Positions 2,492 through 59,514 of a stretch of 64,000 bases of DNA are shown here, piece after piece. Position 1 is the first letter of the stretch, and every line of letters starts with the position of its first letter. The notes beneath the pieces were generated by a model that searched no databases, had not been told where the DNA came from, and was given only the letters and a program-made list of their open reading frames with translations. The stretch lies in the IMG/VR virus record IMGVR_UViG_3300028886_000003, positions 64,001 to 128,000 of that record; one strand, 5' to 3'. Both the position numbers and the translations under genes were made by a program. Origin of the DNA: a virus. Lineage: Duplodnaviria > Caudoviricetes.

Positions 2492-3155
2492 TTTCTTTTA
2501 CCTCAAATTCTGCTATTAACATAAAGTTTCTATATACAACAGTAGCAAATTTTATTGTTACTTTTTTTACAGCCATTAATTCAATTCTTTTTCGTGAATA
2601 AGATGGGTGTAATTGCTTGTAATCATAAAATTTTTGATGATAATATTTTTTATATTCATCATCTTGTCGCATCATTTTTCTTGCACATCTAGTTAGTGCT
2701 ATTTTTAAATTTTCACAGTAATCAATAGGATCTTGTTTTTTATTTGCTAATACTTTACCTTTGATTTTATTATCCATTTTACAAAATTGATTATTTGTTT
2801 TTACAACAGGAGCTAATCCTGCATATGAAAGAAAATGTTTTAAATTTTTAAAACGTAATATATTATCTATCTCAGTTATTAGCTCAGCTGCATCATAAAT
2901 ATTAATAGCTTCAATATTAGCTAAAAAATCCATATACTCTCTTGAAAATCGAAGCATATTATATATTTCATTACGTAACTCATCTAAAGCACTATCCATA
3001 CTTCTAATACTTATTTTTTCTAATCTATCAATACGATTGTCTTGTACTTCTTCATCCATACCATTGATACGATGCATATTACTTTTTTGAGCATCAAATA
3101 ATGTTTTATTTGTATTAGATAAAATTGATAATACTTTTCTTTCATCAGCATCCAT
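2484..3155 (-). CDS. IS110-family C-terminal (Tnp/Nop-like) domain protein lacking the RuvC DEDD domain
   Basis: AAELITEIDNILRFKNLKHFLSYAGLAP...LKIALTRCA...YY...AVKKV; only 223 aa; no catalytic SG after AGLAP. Confidence 0.75.
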   Translation of the reverse strand: MDADERKVLSILSNTNKTLFDAQKSNMHRINGMDEEVQDNRIDRLEKISIRSMDSALDELRNEIYNMLRFSREYMDFLANIEAINIYDAAELITEIDNILRFKNLKHFLSYAGLAPVVKTNNQFCKMDNKIKGKVLANKKQDPIDYCENLKIALTRCARKMMRQDDEYKKYYHQKFYDYKQLHPSYSRKRIELMAVKKVTIKFATVVYRNFMLIAEFEVKEND

Positions 3156-3156
3156 T

Positions 3157-3786
3157 TTATCTCATCCTTTGAATTATTTTAATTTGTTTTTTTGATATTC
3201 CTTTAATATTTTTTAGTTCATCATCTGTTGCATTGAAAACTCCACCAGGAGTACCAAAAATATCTAAAAGTTTTTCTGCTGTTACAACACCTATGTGTGG
3301 TAGATTAATTAAAACTGCAACCATATCATCTGTATGTTTTTTTACAACAATAGGCTTAGGTAAAGGATCAAATTCTTTTGATATATGTTTGATAATATCC
3401 ATAACACAGTAAACAAATTTAATTTCATTATCACAAAAAAAAACAGGTACATGCCATCTAAAGGCACACTCAGCCATTATATCATAATTACGTCCTGGTG
3501 TTGGTAACCTCGTATATCTTGTATTTAATTTATCATCATCATATACAATTATAGCCCTTAAAGGACAATCTTGCATTTGATATGCTTCTTTTCGTAATTG
3601 ATTGTTATTACAAGAGGCTATCCAATCTTGTAAAGTTTTAACTTCAATAGCAATCTTTTTATCTCCATCAATAGCAACAATATCTCCAATATCTAAATTT
3701 TTTACCTCCGCATCAGAAAAAAATGTATAACCTTTGAACATATTAATGCGTTCTTTATCTTCTCTTGAGTCAATATAAATCTTCAT
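3157..3786 (-). CDS. ERCC4/XPF (Hef-like) structure-specific nuclease with C-terminal HhH motifs
   Basis: IYIDSRE, LDIGDI, IEVKT..DW..S, LPHIGVVTAEKLL, IKGIS. Confidence 0.85.
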   Translation of the reverse strand: MKIYIDSREDKERINMFKGYTFFSDAEVKNLDIGDIVAIDGDKKIAIEVKTLQDWIASCNNNQLRKEAYQMQDCPLRAIIVYDDDKLNTRYTRLPTPGRNYDIMAECAFRWHVPVFFCDNEIKFVYCVMDIIKHISKEFDPLPKPIVVKKHTDDMVAVLINLPHIGVVTAEKLLDIFGTPGGVFNATDDELKNIKGISKKQIKIIQRMR

Positions 3787-4989: not shown

Positions 4990-5934
4990 CTAATAGTAAA
5001 TATTATGTCCATCACATTCTTCATCAACACACCATCCATCTTCGTATAATGTTTTACAGCTCGCAAACATTTGTGTTTCATCATCAACTAAATGTTCTAA
5101 AGCTTTCTCATCATCAACACAATGATAGAATTTTTCATCACTTAAAAAACCACATAATAATGTTAAAATTTCATCTTTAGTATATCCCAATTCTCTTAAG
5201 CAAACAATAACATAAAACCTTCCATTATATCCTAAAGTAGGATCTGTCATCATTTTTCTAACACAAGGTGGAATATCATGAGAAATTTTAACATCTCTAA
5301 CAACATCTACGTTTTTACGATGATCAAAAGTTATCTCTTTATCAAATTCAGAAATATCTAATAATTTTTCACCACTTATATAATTATAATTAACACCAGG
5401 ATGAATAGCCAACTCATATATATCTTCATATTCCATATCCATTAACATTTCATAAGTAATTGAAATACAGTATCTATTACTTTTTAAATTAATAGTATTA
5501 ACTATCCTTGCTACTCTACTTATATCTCCAACAACAGCACTATCTGAAGAAGTATTAGTAATTTCATGTAAATTTTTTACATATCGTTTAATACTACCTT
5601 TAGGATCTTTTAGCCAATCTTCAGCTAATAAAATAAAAATATGAAAGCCACGCCCACTAAATCTAATGTAAAATTTAATATTATTATCATGTAAATATTT
5701 GGCAACTGTTCTTGTATTTTCAAAAAAGCCTTCATCTTGTACATCAAAATCTAAGAAAATTTTATCAACATATACTGTATCACGATCTCTTCTATCTTCG
5801 TAAGAATAAACAGATTGGTATAATTGTTTTACACCATTAAATATATCGACATAATAGTCTATTTGCTCTTGATTGAGCATTTTTAATCTTCTTGGGGGAA
5901 CAAATATTTCATTAATAATCATTTTTTTCACCAA
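4990..5934 (-). CDS. Archaeo-eukaryotic primase (PriS-like catalytic domain fused to PriL-like Cys-rich C-terminus)
   Basis: FLDFD, FSGRGFH, GDISRVARI..TIN; C-terminal PPC...C...C...C. Confidence 0.85.
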   Translation of the reverse strand: MVKKMIINEIFVPPRRLKMLNQEQIDYYVDIFNGVKQLYQSVYSYEDRRDRDTVYVDKIFLDFDVQDEGFFENTRTVAKYLHDNNIKFYIRFSGRGFHIFILLAEDWLKDPKGSIKRYVKNLHEITNTSSDSAVVGDISRVARIVNTINLKSNRYCISITYEMLMDMEYEDIYELAIHPGVNYNYISGEKLLDISEFDKEITFDHRKNVDVVRDVKISHDIPPCVRKMMTDPTLGYNGRFYVIVCLRELGYTKDEILTLLCGFLSDEKFYHCVDDEKALEHLVDDETQMFASCKTLYEDGWCVDEECDGHNIYY

Positions 5935-6352
5935 ATAATAATTCTATGTTATGTTTCATTTCTTTTTCTAATTGCATTTCAGCCAATCTAATTGCAAATT
6001 TACAACCAGGGTCCATCATTAATCCTTCTTCACCATTAATTTCATAATATGGAAATTCAGCACATACATCAAATCGACTTTCATATTCATCACAAGTTTT
6101 GCCATTGAAATATCGACATGGTTGATCTCTTTGCTTGCAACATGATCCACATTGGTCACAAAACTCAGAATGATCTTGTACAAGATTATAATCGAAATAA
6201 CTATCAGGTACTTCAAATAATACAGTACCAATAATATCTGCAATTACATCAGATGGTAATTCAGGGTATTCTCTATGGAATTTATCAAGGAAGATTTTAG
6301 CAAATTTTAATGAATTAATTGGCACTATTATCTTCCTCCGTCTTTTAGACAT
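5912..6352 (-). CDS. YkgJ-like CxxCxxCC Fe-S/Zn-cluster protein
   Basis: CDQCGSCC...C...C..YESR..C..FP. Confidence 0.75.
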   Translation of the reverse strand: MSKRRRKIIVPINSLKFAKIFLDKFHREYPELPSDVIADIIGTVLFEVPDSYFDYNLVQDHSEFCDQCGSCCKQRDQPCRYFNGKTCDEYESRFDVCAEFPYYEINGEEGLMMDPGCKFAIRLAEMQLEKEMKHNIELLFGEKNDY

Positions 6353-16572: not shown

Positions 16573-18102
16573 CTATAATTTAATACATGAATATCTTTCA
16601 TTATTAAGTGTTTCAATTAATACATCGTATGGATTATAATTATTACTCATAACCATTTTTAAAACATTTTGACTAAATCCTGACAATAATGTTACACCTA
16701 ATTCATTTTCAGTTAATGGAATTGTTTTTGTTCTTGATGCAACATTCCAAAATATAAGTTTAGGTAATTGATACAGTGCGTCTTCATATTTTGCTTGAAT
16801 TTCCTTAAATAATGGTTTTGATAATTTTTTTGTTTCATCTTTCCTAAAGAACGAATGACAACTTTGTGCTGAATCAAATTCCATATCAGAAATAATAAGC
16901 ACTTGTTTTACCATATCCTTTCGTTGGACATTATTTTTAATTGCCACACCTAATATCAAATCAAATACTGCTTCAATATTAGTATTAGCCACTTCATCAT
17001 GTTCTAATGCTGTGTTAATTTTCTCTCTTAAAGTTTTTGAGTTACTTAAATCAACAAATTGTGGTTCATTAGAAAATGTAATATATTGATCTTTATATAC
17101 TCCTTCATTATGTTCTGATGTATATATTGCTAAACTGTTAGCAACATCAAGAGCGGTAATATTTCCACTAACTGGTGTAGTCATACTACAAGATCCATCA
17201 GCAACTACTAAGGTATTAGATATATTAATATCTGATAAATTAGACCAAGCTACTTCTAATGTTTCATCATAGTTTTCCTCAGGTATAGAATAGAAACGAT
17301 TAGATGTATAACGTGATACAACATCAGCAGGTGTTGCAACTTTCATATTTATTTTAGCATTACCTTGCTGAACAGCATCTAAATACCTACCTCTTCTTAA
17401 AGGATCATGTGCCATAAAAGCATTCCTATACCTTAAATTAGCTAAAGATGGCACTTTATTATAATCAATACTTTCCCACTCGTTATTACACATTTTTACT
17501 TCAACTACATTTAAATATGCACGAAGTTCTGATAATAATAAACGATATTGGCGCGGAGACATGCCTAATGACTTAATAATATATTTAGCCATCATTTTAG
17601 TTTTTTTGCTACTTGCATTCTCACTTGGTAACCATTTCGCAAGTAATGAAATAGGTTTGTTATTCTTCATTAATTCTTTATCCATTTTTAATCTTCTATC
17701 GATCATATGGATAATTAAATTATCATGTTCCAAATCATAGCCTAAAAGTGATATTAAATCATCCCATCGACCATATTCAGGAATAAGATGTAAGAATTTA
17801 ACGAAATAGTTTGGATCAATTTGAGCAAGCCTTCTGTAGCATACTCTAAATAATCTTCTTTCACCAAGTCCCCCACGAACATCTCTAGCAAAAAATAACC
17901 ATTTTAATGCATATTCCTTATTTTCTAAAAAGGCTTCGTCAAATAAAGTTCTAATTAATTCATCATCTGCTTGACGTAAACTACTAACTTGATAATTTAA
18001 ATCAAGTAATGCTGAGCCTGTGCTTTTATATCCAATAGCACCATTTTCTGTTATTGAATGATTTTTAATTTCTCTTAACTCATTTCTAATTAAATTAAAC
18101 AT
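16573..18102 (-). CDS. DUF2828 / TROVE(Ro60)-like protein with C-terminal vWA domain
   Basis: TENGA, RDVRGGLGER, YGRWDD, AKWLPSE, W..IDY..VPS.A, VADGSCSM (MIDAS), ISDMEFD, FWNV, LSGFS. Confidence 0.9.
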   Translation of the reverse strand: MFNLIRNELREIKNHSITENGAIGYKSTGSALLDLNYQVSSLRQADDELIRTLFDEAFLENKEYALKWLFFARDVRGGLGERRLFRVCYRRLAQIDPNYFVKFLHLIPEYGRWDDLISLLGYDLEHDNLIIHMIDRRLKMDKELMKNNKPISLLAKWLPSENASSKKTKMMAKYIIKSLGMSPRQYRLLLSELRAYLNVVEVKMCNNEWESIDYNKVPSLANLRYRNAFMAHDPLRRGRYLDAVQQGNAKINMKVATPADVVSRYTSNRFYSIPEENYDETLEVAWSNLSDINISNTLVVADGSCSMTTPVSGNITALDVANSLAIYTSEHNEGVYKDQYITFSNEPQFVDLSNSKTLREKINTALEHDEVANTNIEAVFDLILGVAIKNNVQRKDMVKQVLIISDMEFDSAQSCHSFFRKDETKKLSKPLFKEIQAKYEDALYQLPKLIFWNVASRTKTIPLTENELGVTLLSGFSQNVLKMVMSNNYNPYDVLIETLNNERYSCIKL

Positions 18103-19006: not shown

Positions 19007-19117
19007 AGCCTAAGGAGGGACTCGAACCCCCAACCTATTGATTTCTTGTATTAAGATTATCTACTAAATCATTAATATTACAAGTCAATCGCTCTACCCA
19101 TTTGGAGCTACTCAGGC
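19007..19117 (-). tRNA. tRNA-Thr(TGT) with 36-nt canonical 37/38 intron (19043-19078)
   Basis: BHB motif: CTTG/CAAG 4-bp helix flanked by 3-nt bulges TAA and AAA, then TATTAA/TTAATA. Confidence 0.92.
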
Positions 19118-54803: not shown

Positions 54804-56123
54804 TTATATCACCTCCTTATTCATTTTGCATTCTCTTTCTTCTTCCTCTTTGAGGAATTTCTTAGAGGCTTTTAATGAAGCCTCTGTGAAGAACTCCTCC
54901 ATATCTACTTCTTCTATGATGTGCTCATAGTAGAAGTAGGCATTGATACTAATCCATGCTCTCATATGGTCAAACTCTGCACCTGAAATTTGACCATTTA
55001 AGTATCTTTTGGCAATAGTATCATCTATTGCTCTTAGTGTGAGCAATATATTACCAACTGGGTGTATTTCGAGGTACTTGGTGGTATATGCCATTACCTC
55101 TACTGGATATTCTTTTTTTGCCCGATTGAATGCTCCAAGAAGTCCATCTTGTTGCATTTCCACCACCATAATTGGTGTTTTTCTATCCATTACACTTTGT
55201 GTAATGGTTTCTTTTGTAATTTTTTCTAATTTTTCTTCCATACTTTCACTTTTTTCTTCAACAATTTCTTTTTGTGGCAATCTAACTGTTGCCACTTTTC
55301 TAAATCCACCATATGCATCACACATATGGTCTAAGAAGTGAATTTTTACAGATAAGTCTGCATTTACTTCAATATCTGTTATTTCACCTCCACTTTTTAT
55401 AATGCTCTTACATTTTTGTTCTACTAAGTCTTTAAGTTCTTTGTTCATTATTTCATCTCCATTTTCTTCTTTTAAATCTTCTTCTTCTAAGTCTTTGAGG
55501 AAGATATATTTATCTTCCTCAATGTAGCTCACTACAAATACATTCTCTAATGTATTGAAATCGGCTCTACCAAACCGATTTAATACAATTGGAGCACCAA
55601 TTGACTCCAATTCTTTTATTTTTTTGTCAGATTGAGGGAGTACACCTAATGCCCCTTCTTCATTAAAAAGAGTAGTTGTACCATTAATAACTTTAAATCT
55701 TACAATATCACCAACATTAGCATTAGTGGAATGATATTTAGTGCCTACAACTGTGTATGTACTCTCTACTGCCTCTGTTGGAAGAACAGAGGTTTTTTCT
55801 TCAAGTTCTACTGTGAGGATTACAAAATTCCTCACAATATCTTTAACAATTGCTTTAACAATGGTAAAACCATCATTAATTAATTGTTTAAGCTCTGAGG
55901 ACAAAATAGTATCCTCAGAACATATTTTTCGTGGAATGTAGTGTGGATTTTCTGCCACACTACCTAATTTGACACCATTGGTATCTAACACTGAAAATGC
56001 ATTCTGAGAGTATGTATTTTCAGAATCGAATTCAACTACTACTTCCATATTAATATCAAAGGCACTAATGCCTTGATAGTATTTTACACCAGTTGTAATA
56101 ACTTCTTTTATCATTTGCATCAC
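54804..56123 (-). CDS. Tandem HIRAN-like domain protein
   Basis: TGVKYY...EFDSENTYSQNAFSV....KLGSV; second unit VVGTKYH...GVLPQSDKK. Confidence 0.6.
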   Translation of the reverse strand: MMQMIKEVITTGVKYYQGISAFDINMEVVVEFDSENTYSQNAFSVLDTNGVKLGSVAENPHYIPRKICSEDTILSSELKQLINDGFTIVKAIVKDIVRNFVILTVELEEKTSVLPTEAVESTYTVVGTKYHSTNANVGDIVRFKVINGTTTLFNEEGALGVLPQSDKKIKELESIGAPIVLNRFGRADFNTLENVFVVSYIEEDKYIFLKDLEEEDLKEENGDEIMNKELKDLVEQKCKSIIKSGGEITDIEVNADLSVKIHFLDHMCDAYGGFRKVATVRLPQKEIVEEKSESMEEKLEKITKETITQSVMDRKTPIMVVEMQQDGLLGAFNRAKKEYPVEVMAYTTKYLEIHPVGNILLTLRAIDDTIAKRYLNGQISGAEFDHMRAWISINAYFYYEHIIEEVDMEEFFTEASLKASKKFLKEEEERECKMNKEVI

Positions 56124-56130
56124 TTAAAAT

Positions 56131-56308
56131 TGTTTGTTTGAGCGATATTGGACGGACTACTTGTAGTTGCTGAGGCTACAAGGTTTCCGTTCTGTATTGA
56201 CACTGTGGACAGATTATTGGGTGCTTCAAGTCCAATAAAGACTCCACAGTGCCCAGAACTGAGAGAAAAGCACTCACAGTACAATTCGCCTCAGCAGCGA
56301 AGCAGGCT
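56131..56308 (+). ncRNA. About 180-nt multi-stem, double-pseudoknot structured element
   Basis: Six or more nested helices plus loop-tail pairings TGCTGAGG/CCTCAGCA and GTGCTT/AAGCAC; GC-rich relative to the genome. Confidence 0.65.
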
Positions 56309-56397
56309 TATTTTTTAAAATTGGTTGAAAAAATCGAGTGTCCTACTGTACTGTCCTACAATCTTGTTTAACAATATTAGAACCCAAACAATCAACC

Positions 56398-56733
56398 ATG
56401 ACAGGACAAGACATAATAGAAGGAATCATAACAAAAGCAGATTTCGGCTATGGAATGAAATACAAAGACGAAGAAAACTTATATCTAAAACTAGACATAC
56501 AACAATTCGATGGATACGAATGCGTACAATTATTGAGCGAAGAAAAAATAGGTAAACTACTATTGCAATTCAGAGGAGATTATCATGGAGAATGCTCAAT
56601 ATCAACATTAGTACACAGAAGAGTATACCTACTTAATGCAGAACAAACAAATGGTGTCCCTGACGCAATAGCAAAACTACCACCATCCGAATACGTTCAA
56701 TACGACTGGATATATAACGATAACTGGAATTAA
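56398..56733 (+). CDS. Hypothetical protein (probable start MTGQD), paralogous to 25360..25713
   Basis: G.IT...LY...I...DG pattern shared with MEKKWTAGKITYISK..GLYFYDICILDMDG. Confidence 0.5.
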   Translation: MTGQDIIEGIITKADFGYGMKYKDEENLYLKLDIQQFDGYECVQLLSEEKIGKLLLQFRGDYHGECSISTLVHRRVYLLNAEQTNGVPDAIAKLPPSEYVQYDWIYNDNWN

Positions 56734-59384: not shown

Positions 59385-59514
59385 AATACAAACCTCATTT
59401 TTTAATTATTTTTCTAAAAAATATAAAGTAGGACATATGGAAAAAAACACAAGTATAAATAACTTTAAATACTAGAAAATATATATTTAATAAGTTTAGA
59501 TAAAGTGGACAAAA

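Follow-up and report, generated by a model that had tools for sequence, protein, structure and literature searches.

The window analysed here, a stretch of 64,000 nucleotides, corresponds to bases 64001-128000 of a virus record that measures 145,330 bp and carries direct terminal repeats. We focus on a structured element of ~180 nt at ~120.1-120.3 kb of that record, which lies between a rightward gene for a 111-aa protein and a leftward gene for a 436-aa HIRAN-domain protein (54804-56114 on the minus strand; Pfam HIRAN, N-terminal, E 1.7e-9). The genome, with a composition of ~32% G+C, encodes a large terminase subunit, a DnaE-type polymerase, a D5-like primase, a PcfJ-like protein, cytosine methylases, a Ro60-like DUF2828 protein and six tRNAs, and belongs to a 145-kb head-tailed virus of rumen Methanobrevibacter. 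We assign this host because Methanobrevibacter sp. is the named source of one homologue of the neighbouring gene, because one copy of the element occurs in a rumen Methanobrevibacter MAG, and because the remaining copies come from assemblies that apparently stem from ruminant gut studies. The virus genome contains a single copy of the element. Within the tRNA cluster beside the Ro60-like DUF2828 gene (16573-18102), an Rfam tRNA match of 111 nt and 48 bits (19007-19117, minus strand) has no ARAGORN call and may contain an intron.

Judged from gene order, the HIRAN-domain gene is the first gene of a ~56-kb leftward block of early and replication genes. Its start is most likely the ATG at 56114 and not the listed GTG at 56123, a choice that fits the 436-aa database protein, and the AUG (56114-56112, minus strand) is preceded by the Shine-Dalgarno sequence AAGUGAU at 56125-56119; homologues show AGGUGAU, a spacing of 4 nt and AUG. 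In total, 26 homologues of the protein were found, including the one named Methanobrevibacter sp. The HIRAN proteins that are linked to the leader have highly variable C-terminal halves, with ~50% query coverage in most matches, and in relatives the same operon contains another HIRAN-domain gene a few kb further in (for example at L008 11068-11865). On the other side of the element, no Shine-Dalgarno sequence precedes the 111-aa gene, which starts at 56398 (+), and a TATA-like TTTAACAATATTA is found ~25 nt upstream of it (region 56367-56400); this gene may be expressed as a leaderless mRNA from its own promoter, independently of the element.

Two copies of the motif GTAGGACA (GTARGACA) are found at 56339-46 and 56352-59 on the minus strand, oriented toward the leader and the HIRAN-domain gene. 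This motif occurs six times in the window against 0.74 expected, and its proximal copy is placed 27-29 nt before a conserved AAGCC in all homologues. Moreover, GTAGGACA followed by an A-run also stands ahead of the operon of the 620-aa/TerL genes (59428-59435, plus strand) and of the corresponding operons of relatives, and GTARGACA, then 2-5 nt, then an A/T run is further present in L002, L004, L006, L008, L037, L040, L043, L044 and L049, always directed at the gene. GTARGACA is likely to be a virus-specific promoter or regulator site. An A/T-rich box, GAUUUUUUC, follows at 56327-56335 (minus strand); the A/T run recurs in all homologues, and its spacing suggests that it is a putative TATA box. 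From the motif spacing and the need to include the covarying 5' tail described below, we infer a transcription start at ~56305-56311, and the predicted 5' end, at the conserved AAAUAAGCC, together with the first segment of that tail occupies 56298-56313 (minus strand). Immediately ahead of the tail stands a conserved AAATAAG that is similar to the TATA-like box of the late promoter. It could be the TATA box itself, and the start would then lie inside the closing helix of the element, in conflict with the covariation and with the RNA model.

With 44% G+C, the element is richer in G and C than its flanks (~30-35%), as an earlier note on this DNA had pointed out, and a sequence check located every complementary segment which that note had listed. 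Its folding is stronger than that of dinucleotide shuffles on either strand (z -4.06 on plus, -5.43 on minus). A scan of the element against Rfam 15 gave no match at the gathering score or at E<=10; for the interval 55900-56600 the best matches have E values of 1.8-10, far under the gathering score, and the only matches at gathering level in the whole window are tRNAs, all of them away from the element. Twister, twister-sister and HDV-like models, which represent self-cleaving ribozymes with a double pseudoknot, are absent among the matches at E<=10, as are all other Rfam ribozyme models, and nothing else points to cleavage, which speaks against the suggestion that the element is a ribozyme. 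We also rejected its identity as a Y RNA or YrlA: Rfam gave no match, the element is 38 kb from the Ro60-like DUF2828 gene, and its partner throughout the relatives is the HIRAN-like gene, not a Ro60/TROVE gene. A small protein-coding ORF was likewise discarded, with stops in every frame on both strands in most homologues and no frame open throughout. Literature searches found no description of the element, nor of any structured cis-acting RNA in viruses of methanogens.

Rumen and gut metagenomes yielded 10 further full-length homologues, one of them in a Methanobrevibacter MAG. Eight are close copies (L006, L008, L016, L019, L028, L036, L037 and L042), which were obtained from contigs encoding homologues of the adjacent gene and from pattern scans. 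A covariance model derived from nine close sequences was then used to search for divergent copies and recovered two that are full-length, L009 (50.7 bits) and L044 (34 bits), together with reduced forms in L002, L040/41, L017/18, L047 and L048. In every case a HIRAN-like gene follows immediately 3' of the copy and in the same orientation, whatever flanks the other side. The divergent gene boundary that had been noted for the window thus recurs in some genomes, but in L006 and L002 the upstream gene is co-directional, and a divergent boundary is therefore not a defining feature. In L009 the divergent copy (50.7 bits) wholly covers a called gene of 69 aa (3454-3663; called also in L010 and L011), and this gene call is probably spurious. 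The full element was present in only one of the ~250 Methanobacteriaceae genomes searched, from which we conclude that it is a viral and not a cellular RNA.

Other searches were largely negative. BLAST of the element and of the surrounding 7.5 kb against a phage collection found no match, a PHROGs search of the neighbouring proteins returned nothing, and the same was true of a search for related loci in viral and genome collections with the HIRAN-domain protein, alone or as an alignment. In IMG/VR, scans for double-loop, loop-2-block and three-block patterns yielded zero or chance matches only, and two-block patterns in metagenome and genome contigs gave mostly chance matches, the real ones being L016 and L028; two pattern matches in Bacteroidota are also due to chance, and neither fits the covariance model. 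The full element is absent from the examined stretches of the TerL relatives L002-L005 (61-72% identity), with a reduced form in L002. The covariance model found no match in L043 and L049, which both have HIRAN-like genes. In L043 a different GC-rich leader occupies 2800-3000, with a GUCCUAAUUCC segment that pairs with a downstream complement.

Comparison of these homologues revealed strong covariation. In our main alignment (MAFFT, nine close sequences, read on the strand of the gene), 90.4% of the cells are paired and 22 of 45 pairs have changed on both sides, compared with 11.1 +/- 1.9 in shuffles, none of which reached the observed value (0/500); controls in which partners were slid by 1-3 columns gave at most 13 such pairs. 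Covariation extends to 34 of 45 pairs in a 13-sequence alignment that was fitted to the model and is thereby biased toward the modelled structure. The resulting fold, read on the minus strand, is a four-way junction of a closing helix, P0, and three hairpins, H3, H2 and H1, with a 5' tail (56289-56311) that pairs with the loops of H2 and H1. P0 joins 56282-56289 to 56142-56150 with A56146 bulged, its register in the window being read from the sequence, and shows compensatory changes in seven of eight pairs. H3 (56258-56280) has a covarying stem and a 7-nt loop, UGCUUUU, which in relatives is UGCUUAU or UGCUAAU, and is the most conserved module of the element. H2 is a two-part hairpin (56199-56252) with an outer stem (56243-52/56199-209), an inner stem (56232-38/56214-20) and a loop at 56221-31; compensatory changes are seen in 6 of 10 outer-stem pairs in the nine-sequence MAFFT alignment and in 10 of 10 in the 13-sequence alignment. 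H1 (56150-56192) is also built in two parts, with an inner stem (56176-82/56160-66), a loop (56167-75) and an outer stem (56186-88/56154-56); all its alignment cells are paired, with compensatory changes in addition, and its 3x3 internal loop, AAC (56185-83) opposite UAG (56159-57), is invariant in 11/11 full-length sequences. The homologues hence bear out the closing helix and the two stems each of hairpins 1 and 2 as the earlier note had drawn them, and leave two of its pairings unsupported. One of these is the helix TGTATTG/CAGTACA, of which just 3-5 of 7 pairs are kept in relatives and which is displaced by the covarying third hairpin, H3; the other concerns the pseudoknots.

The double pseudoknot that had been proposed is real in its topology, in which one tail bridges two loops, but one of the two partners had been chosen wrongly. 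The first pseudoknot (PK1), between the hairpin-1 loop and the tail, holds: the pairing of TGCTGAGG with CCTCAGCA is supported by the homologues and comprises 8 bp in the window, where the second segment of the tail, UGCUGAGG (56289-56296, minus strand), pairs with the H1 loop. Close homologues retain 4-7 contiguous bp, and the divergent lineages offer GCGUG/CACGC (L044) and GGGUG/UACCC (L009). The covariation of PK1 is weak, as a non-cognate tail and loop can pair equally well, and we have moderate confidence that this pairing is kept across lineages. For the second pseudoknot, the note had paired the loop GTGCTT with AAGCAC, which is mismatched in L008 and impossible in L009 and L044; a kissing pairing of the H2 and H3 loops was rejected on this evidence. 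In L009 and L044 the H2 loop has an entirely different sequence that is complementary to the tail instead. In the main lineage this pseudoknot (PK2) consists of 7 bp between the first tail segment UGCUUCG (56304-56298, minus strand) and UGAAGCA in the H2 loop, in L044 of 9 bp between CGCGUCCCG in the tail and UGGGACGCG in the loop, and in L009 of 9 bp between CCCCGCGGG and UUUGCGGGG, respectively. The three sequences are unrelated, and their cognate pairings of 7, 9 and 9 bp exceed any non-cognate combination (5-7 bp); the loop-shuffle frequencies are ~0.01-0.03, 0.03 and 0.07 for the three lineages. On this comparison, PK2 covaries in all three. We dismissed a third pseudoknot, of AUAAGC in the tail with the H3 loop, which shows no covariation: the tail is unchanged where the loop becomes UGCUAAU. 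The same tail nucleotides can, in L044 and L009, pair locally into a hairpin instead, which would exclude PK1 and PK2.

The homologues also bear on the strand. The earlier note had read the element on the plus strand on account of its G-U pairs, and the comparison contradicts this. When the Watson-Crick stems of the window are read on plus, four of the five stems contain ~9 A.C and no G.U in relatives, the exception being the outer stem of hairpin 1, with G.U in three sequences; read on minus, the consensus pairs include 18 G.U cells against 4 A.C cells. In line with this, the RNAalifold consensus reaches -32.8 kcal/mol with 45 pairs on minus and -20.8 kcal/mol with 28 pairs on plus, and the minimum free energy, a measure independent of the alignment, is lower on the gene strand in 11 of 13 homologues. 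The gap is large in L009 (-59.2 vs -33.8 kcal/mol), L048, L044 and L037, and L009 folds on its own to the same four-way junction, with z scores of -2.6 on the gene strand and +0.52 on the opposite strand. The near-equal energies of the two strands in the window itself (-61.0 vs -59.9 kcal/mol) count against a strand call. The promoter-like motif agrees with the minus strand; it points toward the gene and has the same relative orientation at the late operon. We consider it highly probable that the element reads on the minus strand of the window, as a leader.

Finally, the leaders of HIRAN-like genes are modular. The reduced forms, located at L002 1064-1184 (minus strand), L040 2800-2921, L017 ~5900-5990, L047 1501-1644 (minus strand) and L048 1501-1658 (minus strand), retain only a 5' hairpin, the closing helix and the UGCUWAU loop. 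They begin with a GC-rich hairpin immediately after AAGCC, and the H3 loop motif persists in all five. The L040 and L017 leaders lack H1, H2 and the pseudoknots, and in L040 the leader adjoins a protein that is 74% identical. H1 and H2 are thus dispensable in these genomes, and the complete fold is therefore not essential for the gene.

Taken together, the earlier view of a real structured element of no known family was right. That the element is a real structured RNA we hold to be very probable, and it constitutes a new RNA family of a known kind, a structured cis-acting viral mRNA leader. It has a fixed site, with a promoter-like motif before it and the Shine-Dalgarno sequence of a single gene family after it, which marks it as a 5' leader and argues against a scaffold ncRNA, which had also been suggested. 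Our preferred reading, to which we give a probability of roughly 0.6, is that it is the structured 5' leader of the mRNA of the early/replication block, with a role in cis that locks the 5' end or docks a factor. Transcription on the minus strand would proceed from the promoter marked by GTAGGACA and the A/T box, starting at ~56305-56311, and the RNA would form the junction of P0, H3, H2 and H1, onto whose H2 and H1 apical loops the 5' tail would fold back. An A-rich linker that appears unstructured when read from the sequence would come next, followed by the Shine-Dalgarno sequence and the AUG of the HIRAN-domain gene (56112-56141, minus strand). The leader would then act in cis after transcription. 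Methanogens possess 5'-to-3' nucleases of the RNase J/aCPSF type, and a GC-rich clamp, provided by the pseudoknot in full forms and by the 5' hairpin in every reduced form, could bury the 5' end of the long viral transcript and shield it from 5'-end-dependent decay. The conserved H3 loop, in turn, may be where a viral or host factor binds to set the expression of the early operon. Both the stabilising role and the binding of a factor are proposed here as possible functions of the leader. The clamp resembles the xrRNAs of flaviviruses and plant viruses in its multi-helix junction and in a 5' end held by pseudoknots, a topology that would hide it from 5'-to-3' nucleases. However, xrRNAs are ~70 nt long, have a three-way junction, occur in the 3' UTRs of RNA viruses and encircle their 5' end, whereas our element belongs to the mRNA leader of a DNA virus, has a four-way junction and pairs its 5' tail with two of the apical loops. 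With this junction and no Rfam match, the likeness to xrRNAs is one of working principle only.

Among the alternatives, two concern the same minus-strand leader. It could recruit RNA polymerase or a viral protein, mainly through H3, and serve as an antitermination or autoregulatory operator RNA, with the HIRAN-domain protein as one candidate binder in the manner of T4 gene 32, and with HK022 put and lambda nut/boxB as models for antitermination. In line with such a function, the element comes right after an early promoter and opens a ~56-kb block of co-directional genes, the genome having ~32% G+C, and every variant keeps a small hairpin with a conserved loop. The layout of the T4 gene 32 leader also agrees, with a structured 5' domain followed by an unstructured A-rich stretch that leads to the ribosome-binding site. 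Like that leader, our element is a pseudoknotted 5' domain on a viral early/replication mRNA with an A-rich unstructured stretch running into the ribosome-binding site, and the downstream gene encodes a DNA-end or single-stranded-DNA binding type of protein; what is shared is the layout only, since there is no similarity in sequence or model, the element is much larger, with a four-way junction and two pseudoknots, and the host is archaeal. HK022 put and lambda nut/boxB are likewise cis-acting hairpins just after the early promoters of long phage operons, comparable to the retained H3 loop, but they are bacterial, ~15-70 nt long and without pseudoknots. We know of no precedent for RNA-based antitermination by archaeal polymerases, and of no archaeal virus for which antitermination has been shown. 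We regard an operator or antitermination function as rather unlikely, and it overlaps the preferred reading rather than excluding it. The element belongs to none of T4 gene 32 leader, HK022 put, lambda nut or xrRNA, as there is no model match and both junction type and size differ. A ligand-sensing riboswitch, in which junction and pseudoknots form a metabolite pocket that gates the early operon, is in our view improbable. The location in a 5' UTR and the complex four-way junction with pseudoknots recall the aptamers of SAM-I and cobalamin riboswitches, which share the site, the four-way junction, tertiary loop contacts and a length of 100-200 nt, and invariant unpaired nucleotides in H3 and in the internal loop of H1, as well as the two alternative conformers of L044 and L009 (tail hairpin or pseudoknots), are compatible with a switch. 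Unlike those aptamers, the element has no match among the Rfam riboswitch models, is tied to a single gene family, has modules that can be lost and has no apparent ligand candidate. For example, H1 and H2 are missing as whole modules from a close relative (L040, with its 74%-identical protein), and the pseudoknot sequences are free to vary. In addition, the linker and the Shine-Dalgarno sequence lie outside the modelled span and have no partner in the consensus fold, and the element is followed by no conserved U-tract. We found neither the strictly conserved aptamer core nor the one metabolic gene theme that is expected of a riboswitch.

The remaining alternatives place the element on the other strand or in the DNA itself. 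A free-standing ncRNA on plus, possibly a ribozyme, would extend from the TTAAAATTG box at 56124 to a T-run at 56309-56317. It would account for a TATA-like box ~22 nt before hairpin 1 and for the T-run or TTATTT that follows the element in most homologues, and in the window plus folds about as well as minus. On plus, however, A.C mismatches outnumber G.U pairs, the consensus fold is much poorer and L009 folds no more stably than its shuffled versions (z +0.52); in L006 and L002 such an RNA would continue into the upstream gene at its 3' end, TTAAAATTG, considered as a recurring promoter box, shows no enrichment (3 matches vs 1.9 expected), and ribozyme models find no match. We consider this reading very unlikely. 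Hardly credible is a DNA-level element, be it a replication origin, a cruciform or a single-stranded DNA fold, which the position at the head of the replication module could suggest. Compensatory changes would preserve DNA hairpins too, and the plus strand of the main lineage contains GCGAAGC, which we take to be a very stable DNA mini-hairpin found near some phage origins. This mini-hairpin is absent in L009 and L044, though, and was rejected. The asymmetry between the strands, in G.U against A.C and in an energy gap of up to 25 kcal/mol (L009), fits an RNA from one strand, the covariation of loop-to-tail pseudoknots is hard to explain in duplex DNA, and the site is not at a genome end: at ~120.1-120.3 kb of 145,330 bp, the element is not terminal, contrary to the folded single-stranded DNA that the earlier note had envisaged.

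We believe that the structured leader of the early/replication mRNA has implications beyond this locus. A large fold supported by covariation is found at a control point of the early and replication genes in a group of rumen Methanobrevibacter viruses, and, to our knowledge, very few structured cis-acting RNAs are known in archaea. The family provides a new RNA model for the annotation of the rumen virome, where the element is now mis-called as a 69-aa gene, and the shared promoter-like GTARGACA is a candidate transcription signal of these viruses. More tentatively, the leader may be an RNA switch, in which the tail toggles between hairpin and double pseudoknot upon binding of a ligand or protein, or a cis-acting RNA that counters termination or 5' decay across the 56-kb operon, and would then be the first example of a functional class new to archaeal viruses. 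Its mechanism has a real chance of being without precedent in archaea, and the element offers a handle on how archaeal viruses control or protect their long early transcripts.
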